A stretch of DNA of 64,000 bases from Patescibacteria group bacterium (GCA_018971045.1 JAGWVF010000001.1:75480-139479); one strand, 5' to 3'. Positions 19,244-64,000 are shown, numbered from the stretch's first letter. Notes: generated by a model from the letters alone, not told the origin. Translations and numbers: made by a program.

Positions 19244-19244
19244 T

Positions 19245-26590: not shown

Positions 26591-27955
26591 ATGGTACTTA
26601 TGGATAAGAGAAATCCGAAAGAACTGTGGGAGTACGTTTTGACGCAAGTGGAGCTCTCTATTTCATCAGCTAATTTCAATACATGGTTCCGCAATAGTTT
26701 CATCGTGAGGATCGGGGACGACGGTGTCTTGTACGTCGGCGTTCCCAGCCAATTCTTCAAAGATTGGTATTTAAAAAAATTTCACACCCTTCTCTTGAAG
26801 ATCGTCCGCGATATATCGTATGAGTTTCGCAATATTGACTACCTTATTGTGAAAGACGAACGCCGAAAGGCGCAATCGAGAGAAATAAAAAATCCCCGCG
26901 GAGCGATTGAATTGCCGCTTGATGAATTCTATATCAACAAAAGCGATAATTTGAATCCACGATATACCTTCGATACGTTCGTTATCGGCGCCTTTAATAA
27001 TCTTGCCTATGCGGCGTCGCAAGCGGTGCTCGCTCGCCCCGGTATCACCTATAACCCGCTTTTCATTTACGGCGATACCGGGCGGGGGAAGACCCATTTG
27101 ATACAGGCGATTGGGAATCAATTTAAGAAACAGTATCCCGGACGGAAGGTCTTTTATCTCACTTCGGAGAAATTCACGATTGATTATACGGATTCCGTGC
27201 AGGCGGGAACCGCAAACCGCTTCAAAGATAAATACCGCCAATTCGATCTTCTCATTATGGATGACGTTCAATTCCTCTCAAAAAAACAGAAGACGGAGGA
27301 GGAGCTCTTTCATCTCTTCAATACGCTTCACGACACGAATAAACAAATTATTTTTTCATCGGATCGCGCGCCAGCCGCTATTCCCGACATCGCGGAACGG
27401 TTGAAGGGCCGTTTGGCGAGCGGTATGACGATTGATATCGGAGAACCCGATCCTGAATCGCGTATGGCGATCGTGCGGAAGAAAGCCGCCCTGCACGGCA
27501 TAATTCTCTCCGACGAAGTCATTGAATACGTTTCAACGACGATAAGCGGCTCAATCCGCGAGCTGGAAGGAATGGTGAATAACATTATCTGTCACGCCCA
27601 AGTAAAAGGGGCGGCTCCTGATATCGCCGAAGTTCGCCAATCACTGCGCTCTTTCACCCGCCCACAGAAAAGTATTTCAGTGAAGAACGTCGTTGATAAA
27701 GTCGCGTCGTTTTACGGGATTGATGAAGAGAGTATTTACGAGAAAACACGAAGAAGGGAAGTGGTGCGGCCGCGCCAGGTGATCATGTATATTCTGCGCG
27801 AAGATTTTAACATTTCCTATCCGACTATCGGAACAAAGCTCGGGGGCCGCGATCACACGACAGTTATCCACTCTTGTGAGAAGATAAAGCGTGAAGTAGT
27901 TGTGGATACCGAGCTCGCAAAGGAGATTCAGAATATTCGCACCCTTCTCGTATGA
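26591..27955 (+). CDS. dnaA: chromosomal replication initiator DnaA
   Basis: AAA+ Walker [11 protein letters not shown], Walker [12 protein letters not shown]-terminal DNA-binding domain. Confidence 0.95.
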
Positions 27956-42877: not shown

Positions 42878-42952
42878 GGTGCGCCCAGCAGGTTACGATC
42901 CTGCGACCTTCTCCTTAAAAGGGAGCTGCTCTACCAGCTGAGCTATGGGCGC
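42878..42952 (-). tRNA. tRNA-Lys (anticodon UUU)
   Basis: Minus-strand GCGCCCATAGCTCAGCTGGTAGAGCAGCTCCCTTTTAAGGAGAAGGTCGCAGGATCGTAACCTGCTGGGCGCACC: perfect 7-bp acceptor stem, 4-bp D stem, 5-bp T stem, anticodon loop CTTTTAA. Confidence 0.8.
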
Positions 42953-45416: not shown

Positions 45417-46742
45417 ATGACAAAGCACGATCTAAAGATAGAGTACGTGGCGCTCTCCTCCCTCCGCCACCCTGAACGAAATCCTCGCATATGGTCGAAG
45501 GAGGCGACCGCACAACTCAAAGAAAGTATCGAACAAAACGGAATCGTTGACCCGCTCATCGTGAACAATGCGCCAGAGAGAAAAGGAATCATCGTCGGTG
45601 GAAATTTTCGCGCAGAGGTCTTGAAAGAAATGGGGTATGACACGGTGCCGGTCGTATACGTGAATATCCCTGATCCCGCGAAAGAAGCTGCTCTCATAAT
45701 CCGCCTCAATAAGAACACTGGGGACTGGGATCTCAACTTGCTTGCTGAATTCGATTCCTTTCTACTCTCTGGCATTGGATTCACCTCCGAAGAACTGGAT
45801 GGGATATTTCCAGCTGAGGAGAATCCTGAGGTGTTCGACCTCCAGCGCGAACTCGCCAAACTCGAAATTACGAATGTCGATATCAAGCCCGGCGACAAGT
45901 TCGCATTCGGCGATTCATTCGTACGGTGCGGCGACAGCATGAGTGAAGCAGACATGCTCGCGCTCATGGGTGGCGAGCAGGCGGATATGGTGTGCACAGA
46001 TCCTCCGTACATACTTGATTATCTCAAAGGGAAAAAGAAGCAGGATGGCAAGGTGACTGAAGGATTCGGTCTGAAACGTGATCGCATCTATCTCGGCACA
46101 ACATCGCTCCCAGACAATTTCAGCGACCTATGGATGGCAGCCGTGGCGAAAGTGCAGAAGCCAGACTTCTCGATTCTCATCTTCGAGCACCCCAAGAACC
46201 TGAAGACCATCTGGACCGCGCTTGAGAAGCATTGGAAGTACCGCAACACCATCACCTGGCACGTCCCGAATCGCGTCCAAGGATTCGCAGCTAAGCACAA
46301 GTTCTTTAACAAACAGGATATTGCTCTTGTGGGCACGGGCGGCGAAGTATCGCTCAATCTCGAAGCCGAGGACGAGTTGTTCCAGAACGAGTACGAGAAT
46401 GCGATTTATGCCACTTCGGGCAAACCGCACTTCGAGTCGTACGAGAAGGGCAAGAAAATCTGCCCCACAGACTTCATTGAACATATCGCTGCCGATGCAA
46501 AATCCTCGGGCCAAAGCATTATCTTCGGCACGAAACCAATCGAGCTACTCATCCCGTACATCAAGGTGCTCACAAAGCGTGGCGACATCGTACTTGAGCC
46601 ATTTGGGGGTAGTGGTTCAAGTGCCGTGGCCGCATGGAAGCTCGGCCGACGATTTTTCCTGATGGAAAAATCGCCCGTGTACACGGCTGTCATCTTGAAA
46701 AGGCTCGAGAAGGTTACCGGCATCAAGCACAAGAAGGTATGA
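45417..46742 (+). CDS. ParB-like nuclease domain fused to N6-adenine/N4-cytosine DNA methyltransferase (phage-type)
   Basis: N-terminal ParB motif (GIVDPLIVNN, GGNFRAEV); MTase motif IV TDPPY and motif I EPFGGSGSS. Confidence 0.8.
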   Translation: MTKHDLKIEYVALSSLRHPERNPRIWSKEATAQLKESIEQNGIVDPLIVNNAPERKGIIVGGNFRAEVLKEMGYDTVPVVYVNIPDPAKEAALIIRLNKNTGDWDLNLLAEFDSFLLSGIGFTSEELDGIFPAEENPEVFDLQRELAKLEITNVDIKPGDKFAFGDSFVRCGDSMSEADMLALMGGEQADMVCTDPPYILDYLKGKKKQDGKVTEGFGLKRDRIYLGTTSLPDNFSDLWMAAVAKVQKPDFSILIFEHPKNLKTIWTALEKHWKYRNTITWHVPNRVQGFAAKHKFFNKQDIALVGTGGEVSLNLEAEDELFQNEYENAIYATSGKPHFESYEKGKKICPTDFIEHIAADAKSSGQSIIFGTKPIELLIPYIKVLTKRGDIVLEPFGGSGSSAVAAWKLGRRFFLMEKSPVYTAVILKRLEKVTGIKHKKV

Positions 46743-49902: not shown

Positions 49903-50103
49903 ATGTCAAATCGCAAACAAATACCCAAAGACGAGATTATTACCCTGCAAGAGGCGTGCGAGATTTTCAATAGTCATTTGAATACGCTTCATAACGGGGA
50001 CAACAAAAAGGATACTTTAAGCGGTTTGTTTTGGTATGAGACGTGTCCAGAAATATCGAAAAGTTCAGGTGCTAAATCTTTTACGCAAAAGAAAATGATA
50101 TGA
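49903..50103 (+). CDS. small hypothetical protein at 5' edge of the AT-rich gene cluster
   Basis: 66 aa; first ORF after the GC drop; no family recognised. Confidence 0.3.
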   Translation: MSNRKQIPKDEIITLQEACEIFNSHLNTLHNGDNKKDTLSGLFWYETCPEISKSSGAKSFTQKKMI

Positions 50104-51614
50104 ACTTCTTTACTTCAGCTCGTCGAAATAGGGAACCTGCGGCATCATTTGTTGTTGAATCAACTGGATCAGTATTTACCTACTCCCATTTAGATGCGTT
50201 ATCAGCTCAATTCGTCAACACTCTTGTCAAGCTTGGAGTAAGAAAAGGAGATAGGGTAATGGTATGTGCAGAAAAAAGCCTAGAAGCATTAGTAGTGTAT
50301 ATTGCTTGTTTGCGCGCAGGGTTTATTTTTGTACCAATTAATCCAGCATACACCAAAGCCGAATTAGAGTATTTTATTACAGATGCGCGCCCTGCGATAA
50401 TTATTGTTGATCCAGATAAGAAGAAAGACATCCATTCAATTCCACGAGCACTAAATATGCTTATTGAAACTCTTGGGGTGGATGGGAGAACAGGATCCTT
50501 CTTAGAGAAGGTAAGAGAAATGCCTGCCAAGTTCAACGATGTTGAATGTGATGATGATGATTTGGCAGCAATAGTCTATACGTCTGGAACAACCGGGAGG
50601 TCTAAGGGTGCAATGATTAGCCATAATAACCTGCGATCAAATGCGGAGGCACTTTGTCAAAGTTGGCGATTCTCAAATTCGGATGTGTTACTTCACGCAC
50701 TACCGATTTTCCATGTCCACGGACTTTTTGTTGCAACTAATGTAACACTTACAGCGGGCTCATCAATGATCTTTCTTCCCAGTTTTGAGGTTAATGAAGT
50801 CATCAGTCATTTGCCGCGTGCCACAGTTATGATGGGCGTGCCAACCTTCTACACTCTACTTCTGCAGGATGGACGGCTTACGCGGGATTTGGTCGAGCAT
50901 ACTAGATTATTTATTTCCGGTTCGGCCCCGTTATTGGTGGAAACACATAGAGAGTGGTTGGAGAGAACGGGGCATGAAATATTGGAGCGCTATGGCATGA
51001 CAGAGGCCGGCATGATAACTTCCAATCCTTATAATGGAGAACGTGTTCCTGGTGCAGTTGGATTTCCTCTGCCAGGCATAATTCTGCGCATAGTCGATCA
51101 GAACACCAAGGAACTTCTAGCTAATGGTCAAGTTGGCTCAATTGAAATCAAAGGGCCTAACGTTTTTAAGGGATATTGGCAAATGCCGGAAAAGACCAAG
51201 GATGAATTTCGAGAAGATGGTTTCTTTGTGACTGGTGATTTGGGGTTTATAGACGACAAAGAGTATGTTCATGTCATAGGTAGGCAGAAAGATTTAATCA
51301 TTACATGCGGACTTAATGTATATCCTAAAGAAATAGAGGAAAATCTTAACAAGATTCTCGGAATAACTGAAAGTGCTGTCATAGGCGTGCCGCATCATGA
51401 ATTTGGGGAAGGTGTTGTTGGGGTGGTAGTCAGTAAAAAGCACAACTTGTCAGAAGAGCAAATATTAGTTGAATTAAAGAAGAATCTGGCACCTTATAAA
51501 ATCCCACTAAAGATATTTCTGGTTGACGTACTCCCAAGAAATATTATGGGAAAGGTCCAGAAAAGCGCCTTGCGGGCATCGTACAGTAATTTATTTACGC
51601 GAAAATATGAATAG
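50100..51614 (+). CDS. matB: malonyl-CoA synthetase (MatB-type acyl-CoA synthetase)
   Basis: AMP-binding motifs YTSGTTGRSKGAM, ...ALPIFHVHGLFVATNVTL..., GPNVFKGYW, GKVQK; long stretches near-identical in pattern to rhizobial MatB as recalled. Confidence 0.8.
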   Translation: MNFFTSARRNREPAASFVVESTGSVFTYSHLDALSAQFVNTLVKLGVRKGDRVMVCAEKSLEALVVYIACLRAGFIFVPINPAYTKAELEYFITDARPAIIIVDPDKKKDIHSIPRALNMLIETLGVDGRTGSFLEKVREMPAKFNDVECDDDDLAAIVYTSGTTGRSKGAMISHNNLRSNAEALCQSWRFSNSDVLLHALPIFHVHGLFVATNVTLTAGSSMIFLPSFEVNEVISHLPRATVMMGVPTFYTLLLQDGRLTRDLVEHTRLFISGSAPLLVETHREWLERTGHEILERYGMTEAGMITSNPYNGERVPGAVGFPLPGIILRIVDQNTKELLANGQVGSIEIKGPNVFKGYWQMPEKTKDEFREDGFFVTGDLGFIDDKEYVHVIGRQKDLIITCGLNVYPKEIEENLNKILGITESAVIGVPHHEFGEGVVGVVVSKKHNLSEEQILVELKKNLAPYKIPLKIFLVDVLPRNIMGKVQKSALRASYSNLFTRKYE

Positions 51615-53055
51615 CAACAACGATAGAAACGAACGGAAGGAAATAACAAAACGTAGCGAAGATTATTCGCAATGGTATCTGGACGTCATCGCCGCGGCAG
51701 ATCTTGCAGAAAATGGTCCGGTACGCGGCACCATGATAATAAAGCCGTATGGCTATGCGATTTGGGAGCGCATACAGCGTATTCTTGATGAACATTTCAA
51801 GGAGCTAAACATAAAAAATGCCTATTTCCCTTTATTTATTCCAGAAAGGTTGCTCAAGCGTGAGACAGAGCATGTAGAAGGTTTTGCACCGGAGGTTGCT
51901 GTTGTGACTCATGCTGGTGGCAAGAAGCTTGAGGAACCACTGGTGGTGCGTCCAACGTCCGAGACAATCATGTACGAGACGTTTTCAAACTGGGTACAAT
52001 CATATCGCGATCTGCCACTTCTTATAAACCAGTGGGCAAATGTGGTGAGGTGGGAAATGCGTCCACGTCTCTTTTTGCGCACAACCGAATTTCTATGGCA
52101 AGAGGGGCATACGGTACACGAATCAATGAAGGAAGCAGATGCGTGGGCTCGACAAATGCTTAGTGTCTATCAGTATCTAGCAGAACAGGTGATGGCCATT
52201 CCGGTTATCCCAGGAATAAAATCGGAGTCCGAGAAATTTGCCGGAGCGTTCTGCACCTACACGATTGAGGCAATGATGCAGGACGGCAAAGCACTTCAAT
52301 TCGCAACGTCCCACAACTTAGGTACAAACTTCGCGAAAGTATTCAACGTGTCTTTTTTGGACCGAGATGGAAATCGTCAATACGGTTCGCAGACAAGCTG
52401 GGGATTATCTACGCGTACGATTGGTGGTCTCATTATGGCCCACAGCGACGACAAAGGGCTTGTCTTGCCCCCCTGGCTCGCCCCTATTCAGGTAGTTATT
52501 ATAACCATCGGACATGCCGACAGTACTGGTGTGGTCGAACAAAAAGCTAGAGAAATTGCTGAAGAGCTTAAAAAGGCGGGTATTCGAGTTGAAATTGATG
52601 CGCGGCAACTGCGTCCTGGAGAGAAGTTTTATGAATGGGAGAAGAAAGGGGTTCCAGTACGGATTGAGCTCGGCCCTAAGGATCTCGCAAACAATGAGGC
52701 GATTCTTGCTCGGCGAGATGGTGGTGAAAAAGTTAGCATCCCAGTTAACTTTCTAGCTAGAAAAATAAATTCCCTTCTGGCAGACATTCAAACGAATTTA
52801 TACAAAAAGGCTTCGCAAAACATGGTATCCAAAATCAAGAAAGTCGATACTTGGGACGAATTCTCTCGAGCCGTTGAGGCAGGCAACTTCGTTCTTGCTC
52901 ATTGGTGTGGTGACGCAGAGGTCGAGAAGCAAATTAAAGAGGAGACGGGTGCAACTATACGATGCATTCCGTTTGAACAAAAGGCTGAGGATGGTGAATG
53001 TGTGAAGAGTGGGAAACCATCCGTTACGCGTGTAATATTTGCCAAGGCGTATTAA
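51607..53055 (+). CDS. proS: prolyl-tRNA synthetase (archaeal/eukaryote-like class II type)
   Basis: Class II motifs and ProRS-specific region RPTSETIMYETFSNWVQSYRDLPLLINQWANVVRWEMRPRLFLRTTEFLWQEGHT; start at MNSNNDR overlapping the matB stop. Confidence 0.85.
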   Translation: MNSNNDRNERKEITKRSEDYSQWYLDVIAAADLAENGPVRGTMIIKPYGYAIWERIQRILDEHFKELNIKNAYFPLFIPERLLKRETEHVEGFAPEVAVVTHAGGKKLEEPLVVRPTSETIMYETFSNWVQSYRDLPLLINQWANVVRWEMRPRLFLRTTEFLWQEGHTVHESMKEADAWARQMLSVYQYLAEQVMAIPVIPGIKSESEKFAGAFCTYTIEAMMQDGKALQFATSHNLGTNFAKVFNVSFLDRDGNRQYGSQTSWGLSTRTIGGLIMAHSDDKGLVLPPWLAPIQVVIITIGHADSTGVVEQKAREIAEELKKAGIRVEIDARQLRPGEKFYEWEKKGVPVRIELGPKDLANNEAILARRDGGEKVSIPVNFLARKINSLLADIQTNLYKKASQNMVSKIKKVDTWDEFSRAVEAGNFVLAHWCGDAEVEKQIKEETGATIRCIPFEQKAEDGECVKSGKPSVTRVIFAKAY

Positions 53056-53069
53056 GTGTAGTAATTAAT

Positions 53070-53864
53070 ATGCTTGAAAATGTTTTGGAGCTAAAGAATT
53101 TGCCAATTCCGCAACCAGGTTTTGATGTTGAATTGGTCAGAAATTATCAAGGTGTGAAGATCAATAAGGAAGGTTCGTTCTTCCGAGAAGAATTAGTTGA
53201 TATTCGAACCCTTGGTGTGAAGGGGTTGAACTACTATAATTCCACCTTCAATCCACCTTACTATCAATCCATTCCTGGATCTATTTCTTCATTGAAAGTG
53301 CGTAAGACAGTAGCTGAGAAGCTAGCGGCAGTAAATGAGAAGTTAAAAACAATCGGCCTCGAAATTTTTGTTTTTGATGCTTTCCGGCCGCTTGCTGTTC
53401 AGAACTATTTTTATTATGAGTGGGTCCCACGATATTTGCGCTCGATATATCCAGATAAAGATGAATTGTGGATTCTCCAGGAGTCCAATGCCTATTGGGC
53501 TAAGGGGGCCAGAAACAAAGATGAGCTATTGGCGTCTGCTCCGCCACATTCGACTGGTGGAGCGGTGGATATGACGTTTTGTTTTAAGGAGACGGGACAT
53601 TTGCTTGAAATGGGATCCATTTTTGATGATATAACAGAAAAATCCCACACTATTTTCTTCGAAAAAGATTTGGATCTCAAGAGCTTTACGGCCACAGAAG
53701 CGATGAAGAATCGTCGATTACTTTATCACCTGATGACGACGGAAGGGTTCGCTTCTCACCCGAAAGAATGGTGGCACTTCAGTTATGGGGATCAAATGTG
53801 GGCATTAATTACTAACCAGGCTGAAGCATTATATGGTTATGCAGGCAATGACTTCCAAACATAA
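53070..53864 (+). CDS. VanX-family D-Ala-D-Ala dipeptidase (peptidase M15D)
   Basis: Zn-ligand motifs SAPPHSTGGAVDMTF (SxHxxGxAxD) and KEWWHFSYG (EWWH); start moved to MLENVLELK. Confidence 0.75.
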   Translation: MLENVLELKNLPIPQPGFDVELVRNYQGVKINKEGSFFREELVDIRTLGVKGLNYYNSTFNPPYYQSIPGSISSLKVRKTVAEKLAAVNEKLKTIGLEIFVFDAFRPLAVQNYFYYEWVPRYLRSIYPDKDELWILQESNAYWAKGARNKDELLASAPPHSTGGAVDMTFCFKETGHLLEMGSIFDDITEKSHTIFFEKDLDLKSFTATEAMKNRRLLYHLMTTEGFASHPKEWWHFSYGDQMWALITNQAEALYGYAGNDFQT

Positions 53865-54636
53865 ATTCTGGCAGATTACGCCCCGTTTCTCGCCAGACAC
53901 AAAAAGTCTGATGGATGTTTGCGTTCATATCGCTCGGGTTCCCACAGACGGCTTGCTGTTGGAGGATTGTCTTAAAGTTTTGGACAGAACAGAACGTGAG
54001 AGAGCGCAGTCTTTTCGATTTGTCGAGGACAGAAATGCCTATATTACCGCACACGCATTACTGCGTTTTGCAATGAGCCATCGTTCCCGAGTTCTTCCAG
54101 AAGATTGGATTTTCAGAACATCACCTTCAGGGAAGCCGGAGCAAATTAATCTGCCAGGGCAGATGTATTTCAATATATCCCATACGCGAGGAATGGTCTG
54201 TTGCGCGTTATCCTCCACTAGTGTAGGAGTCGACATAGAAAATATTGATGCGCTGAGTAATTTTGGAAACCTGGATCCCCTCTTCAACAAGGAGGAAATC
54301 AATGAGGTCAGTTGTTTACCGGAACGGGACAGGAATTTCCGGTTTATAATTTACTGGACTCTACGAGAATCTTTGCTCAAGGGCACGGGAGAGGGAATTG
54401 GCGGTATTTCAAGGGACTTCTCCTTTTTTGTTAGTGACAATAAGGAAATCTTCCTCAAGGAGGCACGGCACCCTTCTTTACTGAACGGGTGGAAATTTGC
54501 CACTTTTCTGGTTGATAACCATTACATTGTTTCGGTTTCTACGTGTAATCTTACTAATAAGACTCAGAATATTTATCCGAATTTTAGAGGTGAGGTCGAG
54601 CTGATTGGTGCGTCGCAATATATCAAATCTTTTTGA
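53848..54636 (+). CDS. Sfp-type 4'-phosphopantetheinyl transferase
   Basis: PPTase motifs FNISHTRG, GVDIENI, WTLRESLLKGTGEG. Confidence 0.8.
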   Translation: MTSKHKFWQITPRFSPDTKSLMDVCVHIARVPTDGLLLEDCLKVLDRTERERAQSFRFVEDRNAYITAHALLRFAMSHRSRVLPEDWIFRTSPSGKPEQINLPGQMYFNISHTRGMVCCALSSTSVGVDIENIDALSNFGNLDPLFNKEEINEVSCLPERDRNFRFIIYWTLRESLLKGTGEGIGGISRDFSFFVSDNKEIFLKEARHPSLLNGWKFATFLVDNHYIVSVSTCNLTNKTQNIYPNFRGEVELIGASQYIKSF

Positions 54637-54648
54637 ATTCATAGTCAT

Positions 54649-55491
54649 ATGAACTATTTATCTTCAGAAACATTCGGGGCGGGCGACCTAAACTCAATTG
54701 GATATTTATATCGCCTTGTAGACTTTAAGAACAGGATTGAACTCATTCCCGCCTGTACAGAAAACAATGAAAAATTTATTGCGACAATGACAGAATTGTG
54801 GGCCTTTCTAACGTCCATAGAGGATGATGATGTCATCATTGAATTGCAGGGCGATAAACGATTTCCGTTAGTTCAGCAATATCTGGCTAAAAAATGGCAC
54901 GAGTATATAAGTATCATTGAAACCGATGAGGCCGAGAGATTTCTCTCGAAGACAGATTCCAAAGAGGCTAATTCAATGCTAGCTGAGGAAGACTATATGG
55001 GCGTGAATTATGAATTATCGCTACTCAGCGAAAAATTAACAGGCCTTAGCGTAATCATGGTTGGCTGCGGCCCGTTTCCAGAGACACTAATGGAAGTTTA
55101 TAAAGACAATAAGGATATAAAGTATGCAATCGGAATTGAGGGGAGAAATGACGTATCGCAGCTTGCAAATAGGATTGTCACGAAGGTATTCCCAGGTGTC
55201 GAGAATGTCAAAGCAGTAGCATCGGATGCGGAATCATTTGATTATAGAGATGCTGATGTTATTTTTCTTGCTAATGGACTAATAAAGAAGGACTTAATTC
55301 TCCAAAGAATCTACGATACCGCAAAGGATGGCGTAAAAATTTTAGCCAGAAACCCAATCTTGATGGGCAGGTTGTTTTACGAGGATCTATACTCTTTGCC
55401 TTCCATCCAGTACTTTGTTATTTGCGGTTCGGTAAGGGCAAGTAAATTGAGTGAAACTATTTTGTTCAGGAAGCGTGATAAAATTATATGA
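54649..55491 (+). CDS. nicotianamine-synthase-like (CntL/NAS family) SAM-dependent 3-amino-3-carboxypropyl transferase
   Basis: VIMVGCGPFPETL (cf. NAS VAFVGSGPLPLTS), DADVIFLANGL, VKILARNPILMGRLFY align with conserved NAS blocks by eye. Confidence 0.5.
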   Translation: MNYLSSETFGAGDLNSIGYLYRLVDFKNRIELIPACTENNEKFIATMTELWAFLTSIEDDDVIIELQGDKRFPLVQQYLAKKWHEYISIIETDEAERFLSKTDSKEANSMLAEEDYMGVNYELSLLSEKLTGLSVIMVGCGPFPETLMEVYKDNKDIKYAIGIEGRNDVSQLANRIVTKVFPGVENVKAVASDAESFDYRDADVIFLANGLIKKDLILQRIYDTAKDGVKILARNPILMGRLFYEDLYSLPSIQYFVICGSVRASKLSETILFRKRDKII

Positions 55492-57362
55492 CTAACGCAT
55501 GCTCGCATTTCTTTAAATGTGCCTCAAAATGGCCTAACAAAACGGCACTGGTTTTTGATTGTCAAGAAATAAGCTATAAGGACTTAGCAGATCGTGCGAA
55601 TGTTCTCGCTCACAGGCTAAACATTCTTGGGGTTAAGAGCGGGACTCTTGTTGGGGTGTATCTTCCCAGATCAGTTGATCTAATAGCATCAATACTCGCC
55701 GTATTGAAGATTGGCGCTGGATACGTTCCTCTCGACGTTTCTCTTCCAGAGGGACGTATCAAATACATCCTATCTAATTCTGGAGTGAAAGTTGTTGTCA
55801 CAAGCAGGGAACCTGGTTCAAAAAATACAGCCCCCATTATTGAGGGGGTAGGGTTACTGTATGTAGATGATCTAATGGCCTCTCATTTCAATGAGACGGA
55901 GATAGCAGAGGGGAAGACTGCTTACGTGATGTATACCTCAGGGTCTACTGGTTTGCCAAAGGGGGTTCAAATGGGACATAGTGTGCTTATTAATTTAGTT
56001 GAGTGGCAAAGTAAGGTCACCAATATTTCCGATGGCATTACATTACAGTATGCGCCAGCAAGCTTCGATGTCTCTTTCCAAGAAATATTTTCCACCCTCT
56101 CATTTGGTGGGACTTTGATCTTGTGCAATGAAGACACTCATCGTGATCCAGAGAGGTTGTTGTACCTAATTGCATCTGAAAAGATTGAAAGGATTTTCCT
56201 GCCTTTCATTGCGCTTCAGCAGTTGGCAGAAATTGCGCAAATAGGACAGGTCCCCAGCAACTTGCGTGAGGTGATTACTGCAGGTGAGCAGCTACGAATC
56301 ACCCCAGCGATAAGGGCCTTCTTCAAAGCATCGCAGGATTGTAGGTTAATCAATCAGTACGGCCCAACAGAAACTCATGTAGTCACAGCCTACGAGCTTT
56401 TGGGAGACCCGGTGCGGTGGCCGCCCTTGCCTCCGATTGGGAAACCAATACAGAATGTTCAGGGATTTATATTCGACGAATTCAAACAGGAGGTACTAGC
56501 TGGTGAGATTGGTGAGTTGTATATTGGCGGAACCTGTTTGTCGGAGGGGTACATTAATAATCCATCTCTTACTGATGCCAGTTTTGTCCAACACCCTCTC
56601 TCGGGAGAGAGATTATATAAGACCGGGGATCTCGCACGACTTCTTGAAGACGGGAATCTTGAATTTGTGGGAAGAAAGGATAACCAGGTTAAGATACGGG
56701 GATATAGAATTGAACTGGGAGAAGTTGAGATAGTACTGGCCGAGCATCCAGCTATACGAGAGTGTGTTGTTGACGCAAGAAAAGATGTTTTTGACCGGAC
56801 TAAGCTAGTGGCGTATCTTGTAATTCGAGAAGAATATAAGATGCGTTTAACATCCACCCTATATGACGGTGCCGAATGGACTTCTTTTTTAAGAGAAAGA
56901 GTGCCTGATTATATGATTCCCTCAACGTTTATAGTGTTATCGTCCTTACCACTCACTACAACAGGGAAGGTCGACCGAAAATCTCTTCCAACCCCATCAA
57001 AACAAAGGCCGGAACTCGTGTCTACTTGGGTGGCGCCTGGAAATGAAATGGAAATGAAAATAGCCAAGACCTGGAGAAATGCACTTGAATTGAATGACGT
57101 CGGTGTAAATGACAATTTCTTCGAAATTGGCGGCAATTCTTTACTTGTCGCGTTTGTGCAGCAAGAACTCATGCAGGTGCTGTCAACAAAAATTTCGGTC
57201 GCTGATCTATTTCAATACCCGACTATCCGATCCCTTGCAGAAGAGATAGAAAACCGGCGGAATACCCCTTATACGCACAAACCGCTCTATGGTCACCCGA
57301 AAACAGGCAATCTTTCGCCCGCATCGAAGAGAATAAACGCAAGAAAACGTTATGAGAAGTGA
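55488..57362 (+). CDS. stand-alone NRPS loading didomain (adenylation + peptidyl carrier protein)
   Basis: A-domain cores (YTSGSTGLPKGV, FDVS, GELYIGG, YKTGDLAR, GRKDNQVKIRGYRIELGEVE, TGKVDRKSL) and PCP motif FFEIGGNSLL; no C or TE domain. Confidence 0.85.
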   Translation: MTNACSHFFKCASKWPNKTALVFDCQEISYKDLADRANVLAHRLNILGVKSGTLVGVYLPRSVDLIASILAVLKIGAGYVPLDVSLPEGRIKYILSNSGVKVVVTSREPGSKNTAPIIEGVGLLYVDDLMASHFNETEIAEGKTAYVMYTSGSTGLPKGVQMGHSVLINLVEWQSKVTNISDGITLQYAPASFDVSFQEIFSTLSFGGTLILCNEDTHRDPERLLYLIASEKIERIFLPFIALQQLAEIAQIGQVPSNLREVITAGEQLRITPAIRAFFKASQDCRLINQYGPTETHVVTAYELLGDPVRWPPLPPIGKPIQNVQGFIFDEFKQEVLAGEIGELYIGGTCLSEGYINNPSLTDASFVQHPLSGERLYKTGDLARLLEDGNLEFVGRKDNQVKIRGYRIELGEVEIVLAEHPAIRECVVDARKDVFDRTKLVAYLVIREEYKMRLTSTLYDGAEWTSFLRERVPDYMIPSTFIVLSSLPLTTTGKVDRKSLPTPSKQRPELVSTWVAPGNEMEMKIAKTWRNALELNDVGVNDNFFEIGGNSLLVAFVQQELMQVLSTKISVADLFQYPTIRSLAEEIENRRNTPYTHKPLYGHPKTGNLSPASKRINARKRYEK

Positions 57363-60300
57363 TACAAACAATCGAATAAAGGAAACTGACATTGCAATAA
57401 TAGGCATGTCTTGTCGTTTTCCGGGTGCTCAAAATGTAGAAGTATTTTGGGAAAATTTAAAAAATAGCAAGGAGTCCATTTCATTTTTCACTAATGACGA
57501 ATTGGAAAATGGGGACAAGGAGATAGTAAAAGATCCACACTTTGTTAAAGCTGGCTCCGTATTGGATGAAGTGAAATCTTTCGACGCTGGTTTCTTTGGT
57601 TTTTCTGAACAAGACGCAAAGATTTTAGATCCTCAGCACCGGAAGTTCCTTGAGTGTTCATGGGAAGCGTTGGAGGATGGGGGATACAACCCCGACGTCT
57701 TTAAAGGAAGCATCGGTGTTTTTGGCGGTTCAGGTATGAGTACGTATTTTTTGAATAACGTCCATCCGAACATCGGATACCATCCAAATCGGACGTTCCT
57801 TGAATCAATGGGGGATTTGCAGCTATTAACAGCAAACGACAGGGATTATCTTACTACACGTGCTGCATACAAACTTAATTTGCGCGGTCCGAGTATTAAC
57901 GTACAAACAGCCTGTTCCACTTCATTAGTCGCAGTTCATCTTGCATGCCAAAGTATTCTGAACGGAGAGTGTGATATGGCTCTTGCAGGGGCGGTAACAA
58001 TCTTGTGTCCGCAAAAAACCGGCTATTTATATCAGCAGGACATGATTCTTTCCCCTGATGGCCATTGTCGCCCATTTGATGCGAAGGCAAAAGGAACAGT
58101 TTTCGGTAGCGGTGTAGGGGTCATACTGCTCAAAAGATTTTCCGATGCAATCCATGATGGGGACGCTATTCATGCAGTCATTAAGGGAACGGCAGTAAAT
58201 AATGATGGGGCAGTTAAAGTGGGGTATTCTGCGCCAAGCGTAAATGGACAATCGGCAGTAATTGAAGAGGCTATGGCGGTTGCCGATGTTGAACCGACGA
58301 ATGTTACTTACATTGAGGCACACGGGACGGCAACACAGATTGGTGATCTTGTGGAAGTCACAGCGCTTAAACAGGCGTTTCAAACTGAAAAAAGAAATTT
58401 TTGTGCACTCGGTAGCGTAAAATCGAATGTTGGGCACCTTGCTTGGGCTTCAGGGATGGCGGGGCTTATAAAAGTTATTCTCGCGCTTAAACATAAAAAG
58501 ATTCCAGCTACTCTCAATTTCGAGAAGGCGAATTCTCAGATAGATCTTGAGAACTCCCCTTTCTATGTCAATGCCGACCTTGTTGACTGGGAGACAGACA
58601 GCACAAGAACCGCAGGAGTCAGCGCTTTTGGTCTTGGTGGCACAAACGCACACATAGTTTTAAGCGAGGTTTCGGGAGCAAAAACCTCTGATCTCAAAAA
58701 AGACGACAGTCATATTTTCACATTGAGTGCCAGAAACGAAGGGGATCTCAGAACGCTTGCTGAGCGATATGTACAATTCTTAAACAAAACAACAGAAGTG
58801 TCCTTAGTCGATATTTGCTATACGTCGAATATAGGTAGAAGGCACCTCGATAAGAGGTTGGGATTCGTAGTCTCATCGGTGTCTGAACTTCAAGAGAAGT
58901 TGCGGTGTTTCATTGATTGCGTTTCTATACAAAAATACGTTCAGTCACGACTACAAAGTAGTGCAGCAATACATATGAGCGAGAGGGCACAAGTATTGGT
59001 TCGTCTGGCACAACAGTATGAATCTGGTGTGAATGTTGATTGGGGGACTGTATATACCGGATGGGCGGGACAGAGAGTTCACATGCCAACCTACCCATTT
59101 CAACGAAATGAATACTGGATAGAATCTATTGCAAAACTCAGACCAGCACAGAGGAATGAACAGATGGACTTGGCGGGTAACCTGTATGATATGCAGTATG
59201 AAAAACTGCCGCTATACGGAAGCGCCTCACGATATCTACCAAGTGTTCAACAGCTAAGCAGGGAATTGAATAAGAGATTTAAGGAGATAGCCGTGTCGTC
59301 TGGAATGAAGGGCTACACTAAAGAGTTGAATTTGCTGGAGAAAATCAGTTACCAAATGATTATTAACGCTTTTGTTCAACTCGGCTGTAAGTTTGATGTA
59401 AAGAACATCACAACAGAAGAGTTCGTGCGGCGATTTAATGTAGTTCCTCAATACAAGAAACTCATAGATAGATTTTTTGAGATTCTTGAGGAAGAGGGGG
59501 TTGCGAGCCGGGATGATTTTCACTGGAAGTTGCTCAAAAAGCCAAAAATTGCGGACGTTTTATTAACAGGGCAGAAGCATAGTTTATGTGAATTTGATTT
59601 TCTAAATCGTTGTGGTTCTAATCTCGCAGATGTTCTGCGTGGAGTAAAAAGTCCATTGGATTTGCTGTTTCCAAATGGAGACACTTCTCTTCTAAAAAAG
59701 CTGTATAGTGAATCACCCACCCTGAAAGCAATGAATATGCTTGTCGCCGAAGCAGTTTCATTGCTGGAACAGAGTACTCCGAAAAAAATGGGTTTAAGGA
59801 TCTTAGAGATAGGCTCTGGGACTGGTAGTGCCACCGCATCTGTTTTGTCGAAACTCTCATCCAGTAAGACCGACTACACATTCACCGACTTATCAAACAG
59901 CTTCATATCGGAAGCGAAAAATAATTTTGTAGATTATTCTTGCATATCATATGCGCAGCTTGATATAGAAAAAACCCCAAGTACCCAAGGTTTTTCTGAG
60001 GAGAAGTATGATGTAATTATTGCTGCAAATGTTTTACACGCGACTCAAGATTTGAGGGGGGCCATTTCTAATGTCAATAAATTATTGGCTCCTGGCGGAA
60101 TATTGATCCTTCTTGAAGGAACGGCACCTGTACGTTGGGTCGATCTCACCTTTGGTTTAACAGATGGGTGGTGGCATTTTACTGATTATGACCTAAGATC
60201 TCGCTATCCACTTTTACCGCCCAAAGAATGGGAAAGGGAATTGCTAAATCATGGCTTTGCTGAGGTAGAAACTCTGACGTCAGAGGAAATTGGTTCCTCA

Positions 60301-63300
60301 ATTAAAATTGATGGAGGCTTGCCGCAAGCAGTCATTCTTGCCAAGAAAAATTCTACAGTCTATCAGTCCACCCATCAAACCTGGGTTATTTTTGCGGACA
60401 GAAGCGGCACGAGCGACATTTTGATTAAACGGCTTACAGAGCGCGGCGATAACTGCATTGTAGTTCAAAGGGGAGATTTCTTCAGAGAAGAAGTTGCTAA
60501 TCAGAAATACACAATCAATCTTTTTAGACCGGAAGATTTTGAGGATTTGTTTGAGCATATACAGCAGCCTATTCATAATGTTCTTTATTTGTGGTCTTTG
60601 GATGAAATATCTGACCTGATTTCTAATCTTGAGCTTCTAAAGCGTCAATATCTGCAGGATTGTGGAGGGTTACTTAATACAGTGAAATCGATACTAAATA
60701 AGTTACCGACACCGCCAGCTCTCTTCGTGATAACGCAGGGAGCCCAGTGCCTGGATGCCAGTTCCGGCCTAGGCGGACTACTACAATCATCTGTCTGGGG
60801 CATGCATAGAGTTATTACAGTCGAACACCCTGAACTTTGTTGCAAAATTATTGATATTGAATCAACCAAACAAGTCACTGATCTCGTAGACGAGTTGTTT
60901 GCTAGAGACAAAGAACATCAGGTGATATTAAAGTCTGACTCTCGATATGTATCGCGAATAACCCGCGCGAGTGTTAATTTAACATCCTCAGGTACCCAAC
61001 CTCTCTTCAAAGAGGATGCGGTCTATATAATTACAGGTGGTTTAGGGGGCCTTGGTATAAAAGTTGCCGAGTGGATGGCGGGTATCGGCGCTAGACATAT
61101 CGCGCTTGTCGGACGACATGAGCCGACAGACGATGTTAAAGAAAAAATAAATCTTTTGATTAAAAAAGGTATAGATATACACGTTGCAAAATGTGATGTA
61201 TCCAATTACGAGTCCCTAAAAAGCTTATTTTTCAACCTGAAGCAGATAGGGCCTGTAAAAGGTATTATTCATGCGGCGGGTGTTATCGACGACGGAATTT
61301 TGCTACAGCAAGATTTTGAACGTTTGCTCAAGCCTGCTTATGCTAAAGTATTTGGTTCTTGGAATTTGCATATTCTTTCTCAGGATGAATCAATAAATCT
61401 TGATTTTTTCATCCTGTTCTCTTCAGTTGTTAGTACGATTGGCAATGTCGGGCAATCAAATCATGCGTCAGCAAACAGTTTCATGAACAACTTGGCGCTA
61501 TATCGTAAATATCAAGGGCTACCGGCAACCGTTATTCAATGGGGTGCGTGGGCCGACATCGGTACATTGGCAAAATATCCCGATGTTGTAGAGAAACTCA
61601 ACACTATTGGCTTTGGGCTAATACAGCCAGCCGAAGGTGTCAAAGTACTTGAGTTCATTTTACGTAAAGGTATTACAGCAGCAATCTTTGCTCCTATAAA
61701 TTGGGAGCGATTCCTCAAATTCAATAAATCAGAAGAAACCCATCTTTTTGCATCACTAGTGTCATCGTCCCAACGGAAGCCAGAGGAATTGTTTGTGGAA
61801 AATTTTGTATCAAGGCTTGCGTTGCTAACGGGGGCAGAGCAGCTTGCACTCATTGAAAGAAAGGTCGCGGAGAATGTTAGTCGAATTCTCGGCCTCCAGC
61901 AGGAGAGTGGCTTTGAGGATAAAGATTTCTTTGATTATGGGATGGATTCCCTGACTTCAATTCAGTTGAGAAATAATTTGCAATCAGATTTTAAATGTTC
62001 TTTGCATCCGACGCTTGCATACAAGTACCCGACAGTACGAAAGTTGTCGGAATATATAGTCAGTGTTGTTAGGCTAGATAGTCGCAGCGGTATTATTTCA
62101 ACAAATCAAAAAGAATTCACGTCTGTTTCTGGTACGAGAGAAATTTCAATGCAACAGAGAAGATGGATACGACTTGCTGCAAAAGATTATGGGCGCCTCC
62201 TTGTCCCCATCTTGTTCCATGCAGAATTGAACAAGAAAGCCTTCCTTTCGGCGCTTGAGCAGGTGGTAAATAGACACGAGGTGCTTAAGTACAGGTTCTT
62301 AAATGATCAGGCTTTTGTTGTCGATGCCGGAACCTTTCTGCTAAATGACCCCGAGTTGTTTGTCGACGCAAGTAACGAGACTGATCAAGCCCTAGTGATT
62401 AAGCAACAGGCCGATAATCTACGATTCTCTCCCCCAGATCCGCGGGACAGACCCACGTGGATGATTCGGTGCATAAGACTCAATAAAGATAAGTTCCTTG
62501 TGCTCCTACATATCCAACACCTCGAATTCGATGGGGCTTCAATATCAATCTTTGTGGACGATTTAAGAATGTTTTATTCGGATTTTGTAAATGGTATTGA
62601 CGCAACATACTTACCCGCTGTTCAATACGCAGACTATGTCGAATGGCAGAAACACTATCTAAATTCAGATATTTCTGAGGATCGAGAATTCTTCAAAAAG
62701 TTATTTTCTGATACCCTCTCCTCTACGATTTTGCCAAACCATTCTGGTCGTAGTTCAACTGAAAGTTACCCATCAGCTTGTTATACGCCATCGCAAATCA
62801 AGGGTCTTTGGAGAAAGCTTCAGGCGGTCGGGAAGAAAATGAAAACATCACCTTTCGCAATTCTTTGTTCAACGTACGCTCAACTGGTTGGAGAAATTGT
62901 AAATAATGACCATGTCGTCATTGGAACGATTGTAAGTAGTAGGCCATCTTGTGAATTCGAAAGGACCATAGGTCCTTTCGTTCAGCCTTTCCCAATGAAA
63001 ATATCCCTCAATGATCCTTTGCGGGATATGATTTCTACGGTACATACCTTAGTCACGGAGATTAATGAAAGAAGTGGGTATCCAGTTGCGGATATGATCA
63101 ACCATATTCCGGCTTTTAAAGAAATGGAAATCGACACTTATTTCACAGATTCGTTTATTATGCTTAATAATTATTCTCGTGAAGCAGATACTCAACCAAG
63201 AGTGGAGGTGTTTGAGTCACTCGGACCAATTTTGGAAGATGGACTGTCAGGCATAAGTCCTAAAAAGATCAACGAAATTGCCGGACTATTCCTAATAGTT

Positions 63301-63432
63301 GATTATTATGAAGGAGAAATGAGGTTCAATTTTTGGTACCATTCACATCGCTTCTTTAAGAAGCAGGTTCAAGAGTGGGCTGATAGATATTCAGATCTTC
63401 TCAAACAAAATATACAGTCACTAGAAGGCTAA
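57352..63432 (+). CDS. hybrid PKS-NRPS megasynthase, AT-less: KS - flanking subdomain - C-methyltransferase - KR (Tyr->His) - ACP - condensation domain
   Basis: KS triad (TACSTSLVAVH, EAHGTATQIGD, KSNVGHL); no GHSxG acyltransferase motif anywhere; cMT LEIGSGTGSAT; KR Rossmann TGGLGGLG but GQSNHASAN instead of NYAAAN; ACP DYGMDSLTS; C-domain His motif HIQHLEFDG; 2026 aa. Confidence 0.9.
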   Translation: MRSDTNNRIKETDIAIIGMSCRFPGAQNVEVFWENLKNSKESISFFTNDELENGDKEIVKDPHFVKAGSVLDEVKSFDAGFFGFSEQDAKILDPQHRKFLECSWEALEDGGYNPDVFKGSIGVFGGSGMSTYFLNNVHPNIGYHPNRTFLESMGDLQLLTANDRDYLTTRAAYKLNLRGPSINVQTACSTSLVAVHLACQSILNGECDMALAGAVTILCPQKTGYLYQQDMILSPDGHCRPFDAKAKGTVFGSGVGVILLKRFSDAIHDGDAIHAVIKGTAVNNDGAVKVGYSAPSVNGQSAVIEEAMAVADVEPTNVTYIEAHGTATQIGDLVEVTALKQAFQTEKRNFCALGSVKSNVGHLAWASGMAGLIKVILALKHKKIPATLNFEKANSQIDLENSPFYVNADLVDWETDSTRTAGVSAFGLGGTNAHIVLSEVSGAKTSDLKKDDSHIFTLSARNEGDLRTLAERYVQFLNKTTEVSLVDICYTSNIGRRHLDKRLGFVVSSVSELQEKLRCFIDCVSIQKYVQSRLQSSAAIHMSERAQVLVRLAQQYESGVNVDWGTVYTGWAGQRVHMPTYPFQRNEYWIESIAKLRPAQRNEQMDLAGNLYDMQYEKLPLYGSASRYLPSVQQLSRELNKRFKEIAVSSGMKGYTKELNLLEKISYQMIINAFVQLGCKFDVKNITTEEFVRRFNVVPQYKKLIDRFFEILEEEGVASRDDFHWKLLKKPKIADVLLTGQKHSLCEFDFLNRCGSNLADVLRGVKSPLDLLFPNGDTSLLKKLYSESPTLKAMNMLVAEAVSLLEQSTPKKMGLRILEIGSGTGSATASVLSKLSSSKTDYTFTDLSNSFISEAKNNFVDYSCISYAQLDIEKTPSTQGFSEEKYDVIIAANVLHATQDLRGAISNVNKLLAPGGILILLEGTAPVRWVDLTFGLTDGWWHFTDYDLRSRYPLLPPKEWERELLNHGFAEVETLTSEEIGSSIKIDGGLPQAVILAKKNSTVYQSTHQTWVIFADRSGTSDILIKRLTERGDNCIVVQRGDFFREEVANQKYTINLFRPEDFEDLFEHIQQPIHNVLYLWSLDEISDLISNLELLKRQYLQDCGGLLNTVKSILNKLPTPPALFVITQGAQCLDASSGLGGLLQSSVWGMHRVITVEHPELCCKIIDIESTKQVTDLVDELFARDKEHQVILKSDSRYVSRITRASVNLTSSGTQPLFKEDAVYIITGGLGGLGIKVAEWMAGIGARHIALVGRHEPTDDVKEKINLLIKKGIDIHVAKCDVSNYESLKSLFFNLKQIGPVKGIIHAAGVIDDGILLQQDFERLLKPAYAKVFGSWNLHILSQDESINLDFFILFSSVVSTIGNVGQSNHASANSFMNNLALYRKYQGLPATVIQWGAWADIGTLAKYPDVVEKLNTIGFGLIQPAEGVKVLEFILRKGITAAIFAPINWERFLKFNKSEETHLFASLVSSSQRKPEELFVENFVSRLALLTGAEQLALIERKVAENVSRILGLQQESGFEDKDFFDYGMDSLTSIQLRNNLQSDFKCSLHPTLAYKYPTVRKLSEYIVSVVRLDSRSGIISTNQKEFTSVSGTREISMQQRRWIRLAAKDYGRLLVPILFHAELNKKAFLSALEQVVNRHEVLKYRFLNDQAFVVDAGTFLLNDPELFVDASNETDQALVIKQQADNLRFSPPDPRDRPTWMIRCIRLNKDKFLVLLHIQHLEFDGASISIFVDDLRMFYSDFVNGIDATYLPAVQYADYVEWQKHYLNSDISEDREFFKKLFSDTLSSTILPNHSGRSSTESYPSACYTPSQIKGLWRKLQAVGKKMKTSPFAILCSTYAQLVGEIVNNDHVVIGTIVSSRPSCEFERTIGPFVQPFPMKISLNDPLRDMISTVHTLVTEINERSGYPVADMINHIPAFKEMEIDTYFTDSFIMLNNYSREADTQPRVEVFESLGPILEDGLSGISPKKINEIAGLFLIVDYYEGEMRFNFWYHSHRFFKKQVQEWADRYSDLLKQNIQSLEG

Positions 63433-63557
63433 CTTCGTTCGTGATATGAAGAACTAAATAAATCACCGAATTTAATAGCAAAGGTTTATCTGCTCCAAAT
63501 GGAACTGAAGCAAAGCAGCATAGACCTCCAAGAAGGAGGTGCCAAATGGTACATATG

Positions 63558-64000
63558 TCAGCGAATAGGTGTTTTACGAGCAGTTTGTAAATTTTCCTTT
63601 AAAGTATTTGCCAACTCGTCGCTTTGGATAATCAGAGCAAATTTTTCTGCGGGCGCGATAAGAGCAATCTTGTTTTTAAGAATCCTCACCTCAGCGGATT
63701 GATTATTTGCTGCCACATTTTTGGCTCCAAGTATTTCCTGGCGCGCCGCTTCTATACCCTCGTCACCATCAAAAAACTGCACCCGTGGCTTTTGCTTCGC
63801 CCCGCTCTGCATCGCTCTCAGTTTAGGCAGCAGGGACTTAGTTGTGGCAGTCAACTCTTTATATTTATCAGCAGACTCCTGCGCAATCTTCACCAGTCTC
63901 TCTGGAGATGCAGCAGTGTACAGCCTGACATTCTGCACATCTGAAGTGCTCACAAATCCGCGCTTCGCTAGAAAACTGAGCACGACATACACGGTACTCC
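63558..64000 (-). CDS. hypothetical protein, N-terminus beyond window end (possible regulator)
   Basis: Open frame continues past position 64000 (the M in the ORF track is a GTG); no transposase or enzyme motifs. Confidence 0.35.
   Translation of the reverse strand, partial: STVYVVLSFLAKRGFVSTSDVQNVRLYTAASPERLVKIAQESADKYKELTATTKSLLPKLRAMQSGAKQKPRVQFFDGDEGIEAARQEILGAKNVAANNQSAEVRILKNKIALIAPAEKFALIIQSDELANTLKENLQTARKTPIR

Follow-up and report, generated by a model that had tools for sequence, protein, structure and literature searches.

A polyketide synthase of apparent cis-acyltransferase ancestry that lacks an acyltransferase and ends in a condensation domain, in a Patescibacteria gene cluster

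HMWP1 (Irp1) of yersiniabactin synthetase contains a polyketide synthase (PKS) module in which a ketosynthase (KS), acyltransferase (AT), C-methyltransferase (cMT), ketoreductase (KR), and acyl carrier protein (ACP) are followed by a cyclization (Cy) domain. Classical trans-AT PKSs of the leinamycin and bacillaene type have no integrated AT and keep the linker that follows the KS. Finally, polyketides can be released by a condensation (C) domain instead of a thioesterase, as with enacyloxin Bamb_5915 and the terminal C domains of FkbP and RapP, where the acceptor is a non-carrier or intramolecular nucleophile. Here, we describe a PKS/nonribosomal peptide synthetase (NRPS) hybrid of 2026 residues, encoded by an open reading frame (ORF) at 57352-63432 (+ strand) of a 64,000-nucleotide stretch from a Patescibacteria group bacterium (GCA_018971045.1, JAGWVF010000001.1:75480-139479), hereafter the window. 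The domain order is KS, an excised AT, cMT, a structural (psi) KR, a KR with an active-site His, ACP, and C. An identical protein in NCBI (P0001) is labelled 'Patescibacteria group bacterium' and comes from a 150,636-bp contig. In our preferred reading, to which we assign a probability of roughly 0.6, the PKS is an AT-less descendant of an HMWP1/BlmVIII-style cis-AT hybrid module, is the last gene of an acquired seven-gene cluster, and acts in the stepwise pathway set out below.

Apart from the AT, the PKS and HMWP1 have the same domain order. In both, the PKS module is fed by an NRPS carrier, the cMT lies upstream of the psi-KR/KR, and a condensation-family domain follows directly. The two KSs are 47% identical, and at the KR active site GQSAHALAC of HMWP1 (irp1, from a Salmonella plasmid) corresponds to GQSNHASAN of the window protein. 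Thus, the KR has the His of an HMWP1/BlmVIII-type module, as judged against Irp1 rather than BlmVIII, and the domain order departs from that type at the AT alone, an adenylation-thiolation (A-T) gene being directly upstream. The differences are nevertheless substantial: HMWP1 keeps its AT (profile E = 1e-85) and continues as Cy-MT-PCP-TE, it starts from a thiazoline peptide, a Cys takes the place of the Asn that the window protein keeps in the KR motif YxxxN, and identity outside the KS is only 22-27%.

Closer relatives were found in two sets of proteins. At least eight independently assembled orthologues, with 55-61% overall identity, repeat the features of the PKS, namely no AT, a His KR, and a QH motif in the C domain; this recurrence rules out a sequencing or assembly error behind the loss of the AT or the His codon. 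The other set comprises five cis-AT cousins (P0010, P0080, P0084, P0086, and P0102) of architecture KS-AT-cMT-KR(His)-ACP-C, which have the same cluster core, the same QHLEFDG C domain, and 32-39% identity to the window PKS from the cMT to the C domain. The cousins differ in keeping a GHSLG AT. Moreover, their loci L008 and L009 are without the malonyl-CoA synthase MatB, and L008, L009, and L012 are without a clear orthologue of the Sfp-type phosphopantetheinyl transferase (PPTase).

An earlier, sequence-only reading of the window had reported that the PKS contains no GHSxG motif of an AT. Pfam and a regular-expression scan agree with this: Acyl_transf_1 (PF00698) had no match in the 2026-residue protein, and no G[HN]SxG motif was found in it. 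That reading also saw no trans-AT gene in the window. Indeed, an unfiltered search of all six frames of the 64 kb with a profile of 60 AT domains found no AT, the best E being 8.6, while the ATs of the cis-AT relatives and of HMWP1 are picked up by this profile at E = 1e-85 to 1e-122. Thus, profile searches of the protein and the window detected no cryptic AT. A scan of metagenome contigs yielded a single related fragment of 3.3 kb, which had no AT downstream.

The place of the missing domain was located by comparison with P0010 (2289 residues), the closest non-orthologous relative, whose architecture is the same plus the AT. In BLASTP, residues 9-517 of the PKS aligned with 10-509 of P0010 and residues 547-2018 with 822-2283, such that approximately 312 residues of P0010, including GHSLG, correspond to approximately 29 residues in the AT-less protein. 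A MAFFT alignment with five further cis-AT proteins revealed that the pre-AT and post-AT linkers (…VDW…HMPTYPFQRNEYWIE) are both kept, and that the AT core, which spans AFLFSGQG, GHSLG, and xAFHS, is swapped for a connector of approximately 30 residues. Specifically, the linker at residues 392-522 matches the pre-AT linker of the cis-AT cousins column by column, and the HMPTYPFQRNEYWIE motif of the post-AT linker is at nucleotides 59092-59118. The connector (residues ~518-555) is the least conserved segment of the PKS, with 23% identity among orthologues.

The post-KS region had been taken for the flanking subdomain of trans-AT systems. The first half of this description stands, in that a linker is kept; the lineage, however, is cis-AT and not classical trans-AT. 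The PKS has two properties of trans-AT PKSs, the lack of an integrated AT and the retained KS-flanking linker, and in addition a gene for a discrete malonyl-type AT adjoins the PKS gene in three of its relatives. It differs in being a single-module enzyme with cis-AT KS relatives, in having MatB in its cluster, and in the lack of a discrete, cluster-encoded AT within the 64-kb window. The KS itself is complete in its Cys-His-His triad (TACST 186-190, EAHGT 322-326, KSNVGH 357-362) and has a mean identity of 77% to its orthologues; its best other matches are AT-containing proteins (49-61%), with 54-61% identity to cis-AT cousins in one comparison and 49-59% across the five named above. We assign a cis-AT origin because the KS is nearest to AT-containing enzymes and because an AT-bearing sister group occurs in the same type of cluster, the lineage assignment being based on best matches and synteny rather than on a formal tree. 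For the same reasons, the loss appears recent and independent. Judging from these alignments, the AT was lost by an independent, clean excision within the cis-AT lineage and not by descent from the classical trans-AT clade.

Based on a comparison of loci, the loss of the AT coincided with changes elsewhere in the cluster. Four loci (L001, L003, L005, and L006) have the same seven genes in the same order, and a fifth, L002, has the same order on a contig whose start cuts into the MatB gene; L004 and L007 cover less of the block, starting at the gene for a nicotianamine synthase (NAS)-like protein and at the A-T gene, respectively. The flanking genes vary by locus, and the seven-gene block is therefore the unit. 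The cis-AT cousin loci L008, L009, and L012 share the prolyl-tRNA synthetase (ProRS), M15 peptidase, NAS-like, A-T, and PKS genes, and no locus departs from the order NAS-like, A-T, PKS. In tblastn searches, MatB orthologues with 64-70% identity were found in all five AT-less loci that cover the position (L001, L002, L003, L005, and L006) and in neither of the two assessable cis-AT loci (L008 and L009; L012 starts too late). Similarly, orthologues of the Sfp-type PPTase (41-44% identity) occurred in all five AT-less loci covering the region, with no match in L008 or L012 and only a 24% match to a 178-residue product in L009. As read from these loci, the AT-less lineage gained MatB and the Sfp-type PPTase.

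Three of the AT-less loci (L003, L004, and L006) further encode a divergent FabD-like AT directly after the PKS and convergent to it. This protein, of 405-407 residues, has GNSLG in place of GHSLG, the Arg of ERGRCM, GAFHS, and an N-terminal extension of approximately 50 residues. It matched TIGR00128 at E = 1.4e-32, which is below the family cut-off, and the Pfam AT family at E = 1e-5. Only two close relatives were found in a set of 5.8 billion proteins, and there was no counterpart in the window, L001, L002, L005, or L007. A scan of genome contigs yielded three loci whose metagenome-assembled genome labels are discordant (Lithacetigena, Moraniibacteriota, and Gammaproteobacteria); these labels were not used for taxonomy.

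The KR had been noted to read N-H-A-S-A-N, with the cat codon at 61462-61464. The DNA confirms this: nucleotides 61441-61476 (ggc aat gtc ggg caa tca aat CAT gcg tca gca aac) encode GNVGQSNHASAN. A phmmer search of the PDB aligned this segment without gaps to GAPGLGGYAPGN of EryKR1 and GLPGLGNYAPGN of the Lsd14 KR, placing His1371 exactly on the catalytic Tyr. Apart from the Tyr, the features of a reduction-competent, B-type KR are present: the NADPH motif TGGLGGLG (1228-1235), the catalytic Lys (AYAKVFG), Ser (LFSS), and Asn (HASAN), and an LDD-type motif, IDD in HAAGVIDD (1307-1314). Reduction-incompetent KRs usually lose the NADPH motif, Lys, Ser, and Asn. All four are intact here, and the conservation of the domain is likewise not that of a C-type, reduction-incompetent KR. 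Specifically, His1371 is invariant in the eight orthologues P0002-P0009, among which the catalytic KR has 65% mean identity and 37% invariant columns and is as conserved as the cMT, ACP, and C domain; the linkers are far less conserved, at 23-49% identity.

The distribution of the His was evaluated in a census of 675 KR domains from 268 proteins, a sample gathered in this study and biased towards relatives of the query. The column of the catalytic Tyr contained Tyr in 608 domains, His in 51, and other residues in 16. Modules with a cMT had 37 His versus 15 Tyr, accounting for 37 of the 51 His-type KRs. In addition, 22 of the 51 share their module with a dehydratase (DH) domain, which needs a β-hydroxyl to act, and fully reducing proteins with both DH and enoylreductase families, the latter as given by Pfam lists, also carry GQANHAAAN. 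An all-versus-all KR search was ranked by summed score, by which giant multi-KR synthases are dominant, and was used as a census only, not to identify nearest neighbours. A cMT-KR from Ralstonia has His at this position and one from Nostoc has Tyr. The unannotated cMT-KR PKS of Ralstonia pseudosolanacearum pUW386 (L013, 1815714-1823672) has Ser for Asn as well as His for Tyr (AQGSHTAAS). A cluster-member look-up of ten His-type KR proteins returned no characterised names.

Yersiniabactin contains a secondary alcohol that matches keto reduction by HMWP1. The KR of HMWP1 has been described as performing NAD(P)H-dependent keto reduction (PMC9547227), and a review of PKSs describes the KR residue as 'tyrosine (sometimes replaced by histidine)' (PMC7327777). 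The Tyr-to-His substitution is thus real but already a known variant. The sequence-only reading had proposed an inactive or mechanistically unusual reductase and, as a result, an α-methyl-β-keto intermediate. The occurrence of His in 51 of 675 KRs, in 22 modules with a DH, in HMWP1, and in the review argues against the first proposal and makes the second the less likely outcome. The His-type KR is probably active, and a β-hydroxy product is a better prediction than a β-keto product because the His is noted in the review, is invariant in the orthologues, prevails in the cMT modules of the census, accompanies a DH in 22 modules, and occurs in HMWP1.

The C domain at the end of the protein carries the motif IQHLEFDG (residues 1721-1728, nucleotides 62512-62535), as the QHLEFDG variant of HHxxxDG had been read. 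The first His is replaced by Gln, and the second, catalytic His, the Asp, and the Gly are kept, which provides the core of a competent C domain and makes the suggested non-hydrolytic release reasonable. All orthologues and cis-AT cousins share the pattern QH[LI][ED]FDG. Relatives in the PDB are 8z0q, Txo1/2, BacC, and TycC, the best match being 8z0q, a 'special condensation domain' (E = 1.8e-20). A carrier-bound acceptor downstream was not found: the protein ends with the C domain, and in all loci the conserved gene block ends with the PKS. Bamb_5915 and FkbP/RapP differ from the window protein, in which a one-module PKS carries the C domain directly behind its ACP and the motif begins with QH instead of HH. 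A search for a characterised member of this QHLEFDG 'PKS-C' family found none. In Streptomyces tibetensis (L010, JBEXWI010000042.1), a KS-AT-KR(His)-ACP-C protein has the same QHLEFDG C domain, and its neighbours are four ATP-grasp ligases, glutamate mutase subunits, TauD, an AsnRS-like gene, and a thioesterase; the cassette of His-KR and terminal C domain is therefore reused in quite different clusters.

The coordinates of the PKS domains, the cluster genes, and the FabD-like AT genes of the relatives are summarized in Table 1. Within the cMT, the S-adenosylmethionine (SAM) motif LEIGSGTG (818-825) and NVLHAT (893-898) are intact, and identity to the orthologues is 62%.

Table 1. Features of the PKS, its gene cluster, and related loci. 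Positions are those of the window unless a locus is named.
Feature	Residues and detail	Nucleotides	Strand	Basis
Ketosynthase	12-391	57385..58524	+	Pfam PF00109, PF02801
KS-to-AT linker subdomain, kept	392-522	58525..58917	+	Pfam KAsynt_C_assoc, CurL-like_PKS_C, RhiE-like linker (394-522)
Short connector in place of AT core	~518-555	58903..59016	+	BLASTP, MAFFT
Post-AT linker, kept	556-592, including HMPTYPFQRNEYWIE	59017..59127	+	Aligned with LPTYPFQRxRYW of cis-AT cousins
C-methyltransferase with N-terminal HTH_51 lid	638-985	59263..60306	+	Pfam PF18558, PF08242, PF13489 (HTH_51 and cMT, 638-972)
Structural (psi) KR subdomain	~1005-1190	60364..60921	+	Pfam PF21394 (1013-1183)
Catalytic KR subdomain	1223-1402	61018..61557	+	Pfam PF08659, E 4e-57
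CAT codon at catalytic Tyr position	His1371	61462..61464	+	DNA read, gapless PDB alignment
ACP	1504-1569, phosphopantetheine Ser in GMDSL 1530-1534	61861..62058	+	Pfam PF00550
Terminal condensation domain	1600-2023	62149..63420	+	Pfam PF00668, E 1.5e-44
Malonyl-CoA synthase (MatB type)	First cluster gene	50100..51614	+	NCBIfam NF005702, 742.8 bits (cut-off 558)
Prolyl-tRNA synthetase copy		51523..53055	+	NCBIfam TIGR00408, 588 bits (cut-off 437)
Peptidase M15	VanX-like D-Ala-D-Ala dipeptidase family	52998..53864	+	Pfam PF01427, E 8.5e-25
Sfp/HetI-type phosphopantetheinyl transferase		53833..54636	+	Pfam PF01648, PF22624
Nicotianamine-synthase/CntL-family homologue	280 residues; homologue of SAM-dependent aminobutyryl-transferases	54649..55491	+	Orthologue profile against PDB
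Adenylation + thiolation didomain		55488..57362	+	Pfam AMP-binding, PP-binding; NCBIfam TIGR01733
Divergent FabD-like AT		L003 13981-15204; L004 8665-9888; L006 16402-17619	-	TIGR00128, Pfam AT

The PKS is the last of seven co-directional, mostly overlapping genes: MatB, ProRS, M15 peptidase, PPTase, NAS/CntL-like, A-T, and PKS. The first of these, overlooked in the sequence-only reading, is a malonyl-CoA synthase and not an amino-acid adenylation domain; it matches NF005702 over its full length, and its predicted substrate is malonate. The ProRS is full-length and aligns from residue 42 of its ORF, its true start probably being at ~51.6 kb, and it is the most conserved gene of the cluster, with 66-75% identity in all related loci including those of the cis-AT cousins. 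The M15 peptidase is conserved in every cluster, AT-less and cis-AT, and could serve in prodrug activation, immunity, or the processing of D-amino-acid dipeptides. The PPTase matches the NCBIfam families HetI and AusB below their cut-offs.

The 280-residue protein had been labelled 'NAS-like'. Alone, it has no Pfam match, but a profile of nine orthologues searched against the PDB identified it as a relative of CntL of staphylopine biosynthesis (7c9m, E = 6e-13) and of nicotianamine synthase (thermoNAS, 3fpe, 2.5e-5). An assignment as an azetidine-2-carboxylate synthase of the AzeJ/VioH type was dropped, the PDB matches being CntL and NAS with no AzeJ or VioH chain. In L012 (2992-5505), a single fused protein has the NAS-like part at its N-terminus and the A-T part after it, an arrangement implying that the NAS-like enzyme acts on or feeds the A-T substrate. 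The stop codon of the A-T gene overlaps the start of the PKS. The specificity code of the A domain, extracted against GrsA, is DVQFIAQVVK and is invariant in all six AT-less loci; in the cis-AT cousins it is DVQF[VN]AQVVK. The code is one position from that of proline, which we take to be DVQFIAHVVK. Together, the ProRS and the proline-like code suggest a self-resistance copy and a product directed at ProRS. A full-text search of the literature found nothing specific on the C-domain structure 8z0q, on ProRS+NAS+PKS clusters, on PKSs in Patescibacteria, or on MatB with AT-less systems.

In the pathway that we propose, the domain content, motif integrity, excision, synteny, and the MatB, ProRS, and NAS-like families are observed, and the substrate of the A domain, the activity of the KR, the loading agent, and the acceptor of the C domain are predicted. 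The A-T protein would load proline or a close analogue, as its specificity code indicates. The gene order and the overlapping stop and start suggest that the KS takes this Pro starter, which it would condense with malonyl-ACP, the malonyl-CoA being supplied by the cluster's own MatB. Malonyl would be placed on the ACP in trans; in three relatives, the FabD-like AT beside the PKS could do so, and in the window no agent for this step was seen. The cMT, with its intact motifs, would then methylate C-α. Judging from homology, conservation, and co-occurrence with DH domains, the His-type KR would reduce the β-keto group with NADPH, as does the KR of HMWP1, and the IDD motif predicts a B-type (D) alcohol. 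Finally, the C domain may release the 3-hydroxy-2-methyl-3-(pyrrolidin-2-yl)propanoyl chain either by transfer to a nucleophile, an amine or a hydroxyl, or by forming a lactam, and the product of the NAS/CntL-like enzyme is a candidate acceptor.

Several alternatives to this pathway were weighed. If the His made the KR reduction-incompetent, with only a structural or epimerase role, an α-methyl-β-keto chain would be passed to the C domain. Tyr is the canonical general acid of short-chain dehydrogenases/reductases and is kept in 608 of the 675 KRs of the census, and a literature search turned up no direct assay of a His-type KR. Nevertheless, the retained NADPH motif, Lys, Ser, and Asn, conservation equal to that of the other catalytic domains, the 22 His-type KRs that accompany a DH, the same His in HMWP1, whose KR is taken to form the yersiniabactin alcohol, and its acceptance as an alternative residue (PMC7327777) render this unlikely. 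A different departure concerns loading, which might be independent of any AT: a MatB-type ligase would replace the AT by passing malonyl-AMP directly to the phosphopantetheine thiol of the ACP, or by making enough malonyl-CoA for the ACP to malonylate itself. In a stoichiometric variant, the co-acquired Sfp-type PPTase would transfer malonyl-phosphopantetheine. The presence of MatB and PPTase in the AT-less loci and their lack in the assessable cis-AT cousin loci are in keeping with such loading, as are the lack of an AT in 64 kb, the lack in the protein database of an orthologue of the relatives' FabD-like AT from the window's contig, and the Patescibacteria host lineage. However, L003, L004, and L006 have both MatB and the FabD-like AT, a pairing that points to a precursor-supply role for MatB and a continued need for an AT. 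Moreover, MatB scores as an ordinary malonyl-CoA synthase, the sample is small (five AT-less versus two cis-AT loci, and a genome seen only in the window), and no precedent was found in the literature. We therefore regard AT-independent loading as distinctly unlikely. The particular proposal that an adenylating MatB-type ligase has replaced the integrated AT, with malonyl reaching the ACP in a route that involves no AT, whether the phosphopantetheine is acylated directly or the ACP malonylates itself, is a long shot; if true, MatB, PPTase, and PKS would form a self-sufficient PKS kit for a host without a fatty-acid synthase.

The order of assembly could also be the reverse, with the C domain and the A-T protein forming a split NRPS module in which the short methyl-branched hydroxyacyl chain of the PKS N-acylates Pro-S-T. 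Besides the ACP, the cluster's only carrier is indeed that of the A-T protein, and the C domain has none after it. We nevertheless consider this order improbable: the A-T gene is directly upstream with its stop overlapping the PKS start; the cluster offers the KS neither a loading module nor an AT or acyl-starter enzyme, and has nothing to release a product bound to the T domain; and every locus keeps NAS-like, A-T, and PKS in this order, with the NAS-like protein fused to the A-T N-terminus in L012. A number of points weigh against our preferred reading of an AT-less descendant of a cis-AT module acting in the order A-T, PKS. No AT of any kind is visible in the 64-kb window, and no orthologue of the FabD-like AT from the window's contig was detectable in the 5.8-billion-protein set. 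Patescibacteria usually lack fatty-acid synthesis, and a host FabD therefore cannot be assumed. The claim of a functional His is drawn from HMWP1 and from the logic of co-occurrence, and the proline assignment from a GrsA sequence and a reference code that are presumed to be correct. The acceptor proposed for the C domain is a candidate only. Finally, the placement of the cluster in a Patescibacteria chromosome holds unless the contig is chimeric at ~49.8 kb.

This last point arises from the base composition of the window. The GC content drops from 0.55 to ~0.43 at 49.7-49.9 kb, where the cluster starts, and does not recover before the PKS ends; that of the related loci is 34-37%. The low-GC block points to horizontal acquisition from a donor of lower GC content, or possibly to a chimeric join at ~49.8 kb. 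A megablast search of 50000-64000 against E. coli genomes and plasmids yielded no match, and exact-protein look-ups with the PKS, MatB, and a 298-residue flanking gene product returned no record bearing on the junction or on the DNA past 64 kb. On the other side of the boundary, dnaA (26591-27955) lies near the minimum of the cumulative GC skew (~24-26 kb), and its product is 88-94% identical to proteins labelled Candidatus Kaiserbacteria, Paceibacterota, Minisyncoccota, and Parcubacteria. The backbone also carries two PilB ATPases, ComEC, PBP1, PolA, a TraG-like ATPase, and a ParB-methylase. Thus, a Kaiserbacteria/Paceibacterota-like chromosome probably has its replication origin within the window, at ~22 kb from the PKS island. 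A TraG-like P-loop ATPase (19215-21068), a tRNA-Lys (42878-42952), and a fusion of ParB with an N6/N4 DNA methylase (45417-46742) were placed between dnaA and the island, and may be remnants of a mobile element that delivered the cluster. After the cluster, the only view of the DNA is a partial ORF (63558-64000, - strand), convergent to the PKS and leaving the window at its end, which has no Pfam match and is not AT-like.

With respect to annotation, a His in the KR is no ground for an 'inactive' call: most cMT modules of the census have it, as does HMWP1, and structure predictions that call modules with a His-type KR β-keto are probably wrong. The KR variant is ordinary. The AT-less state, by contrast, is a genuine and evolutionarily informative variant, in which an AT-less enzyme arose from a cis-AT module with exact breakpoints, AT-bearing sister clusters are extant, and MatB and a PPTase were gained alongside. 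The family raises the question of how the extender unit is loaded, and is a useful natural template for engineering by AT deletion. For the organism, the cluster is in a chromosome of the candidate phyla radiation, where PKS clusters are rare, and the combination of a proline-type starter, a ProRS copy, and a NAS-like enzyme is compatible with a ProRS-directed antibiotic or an opine-like metallophore.

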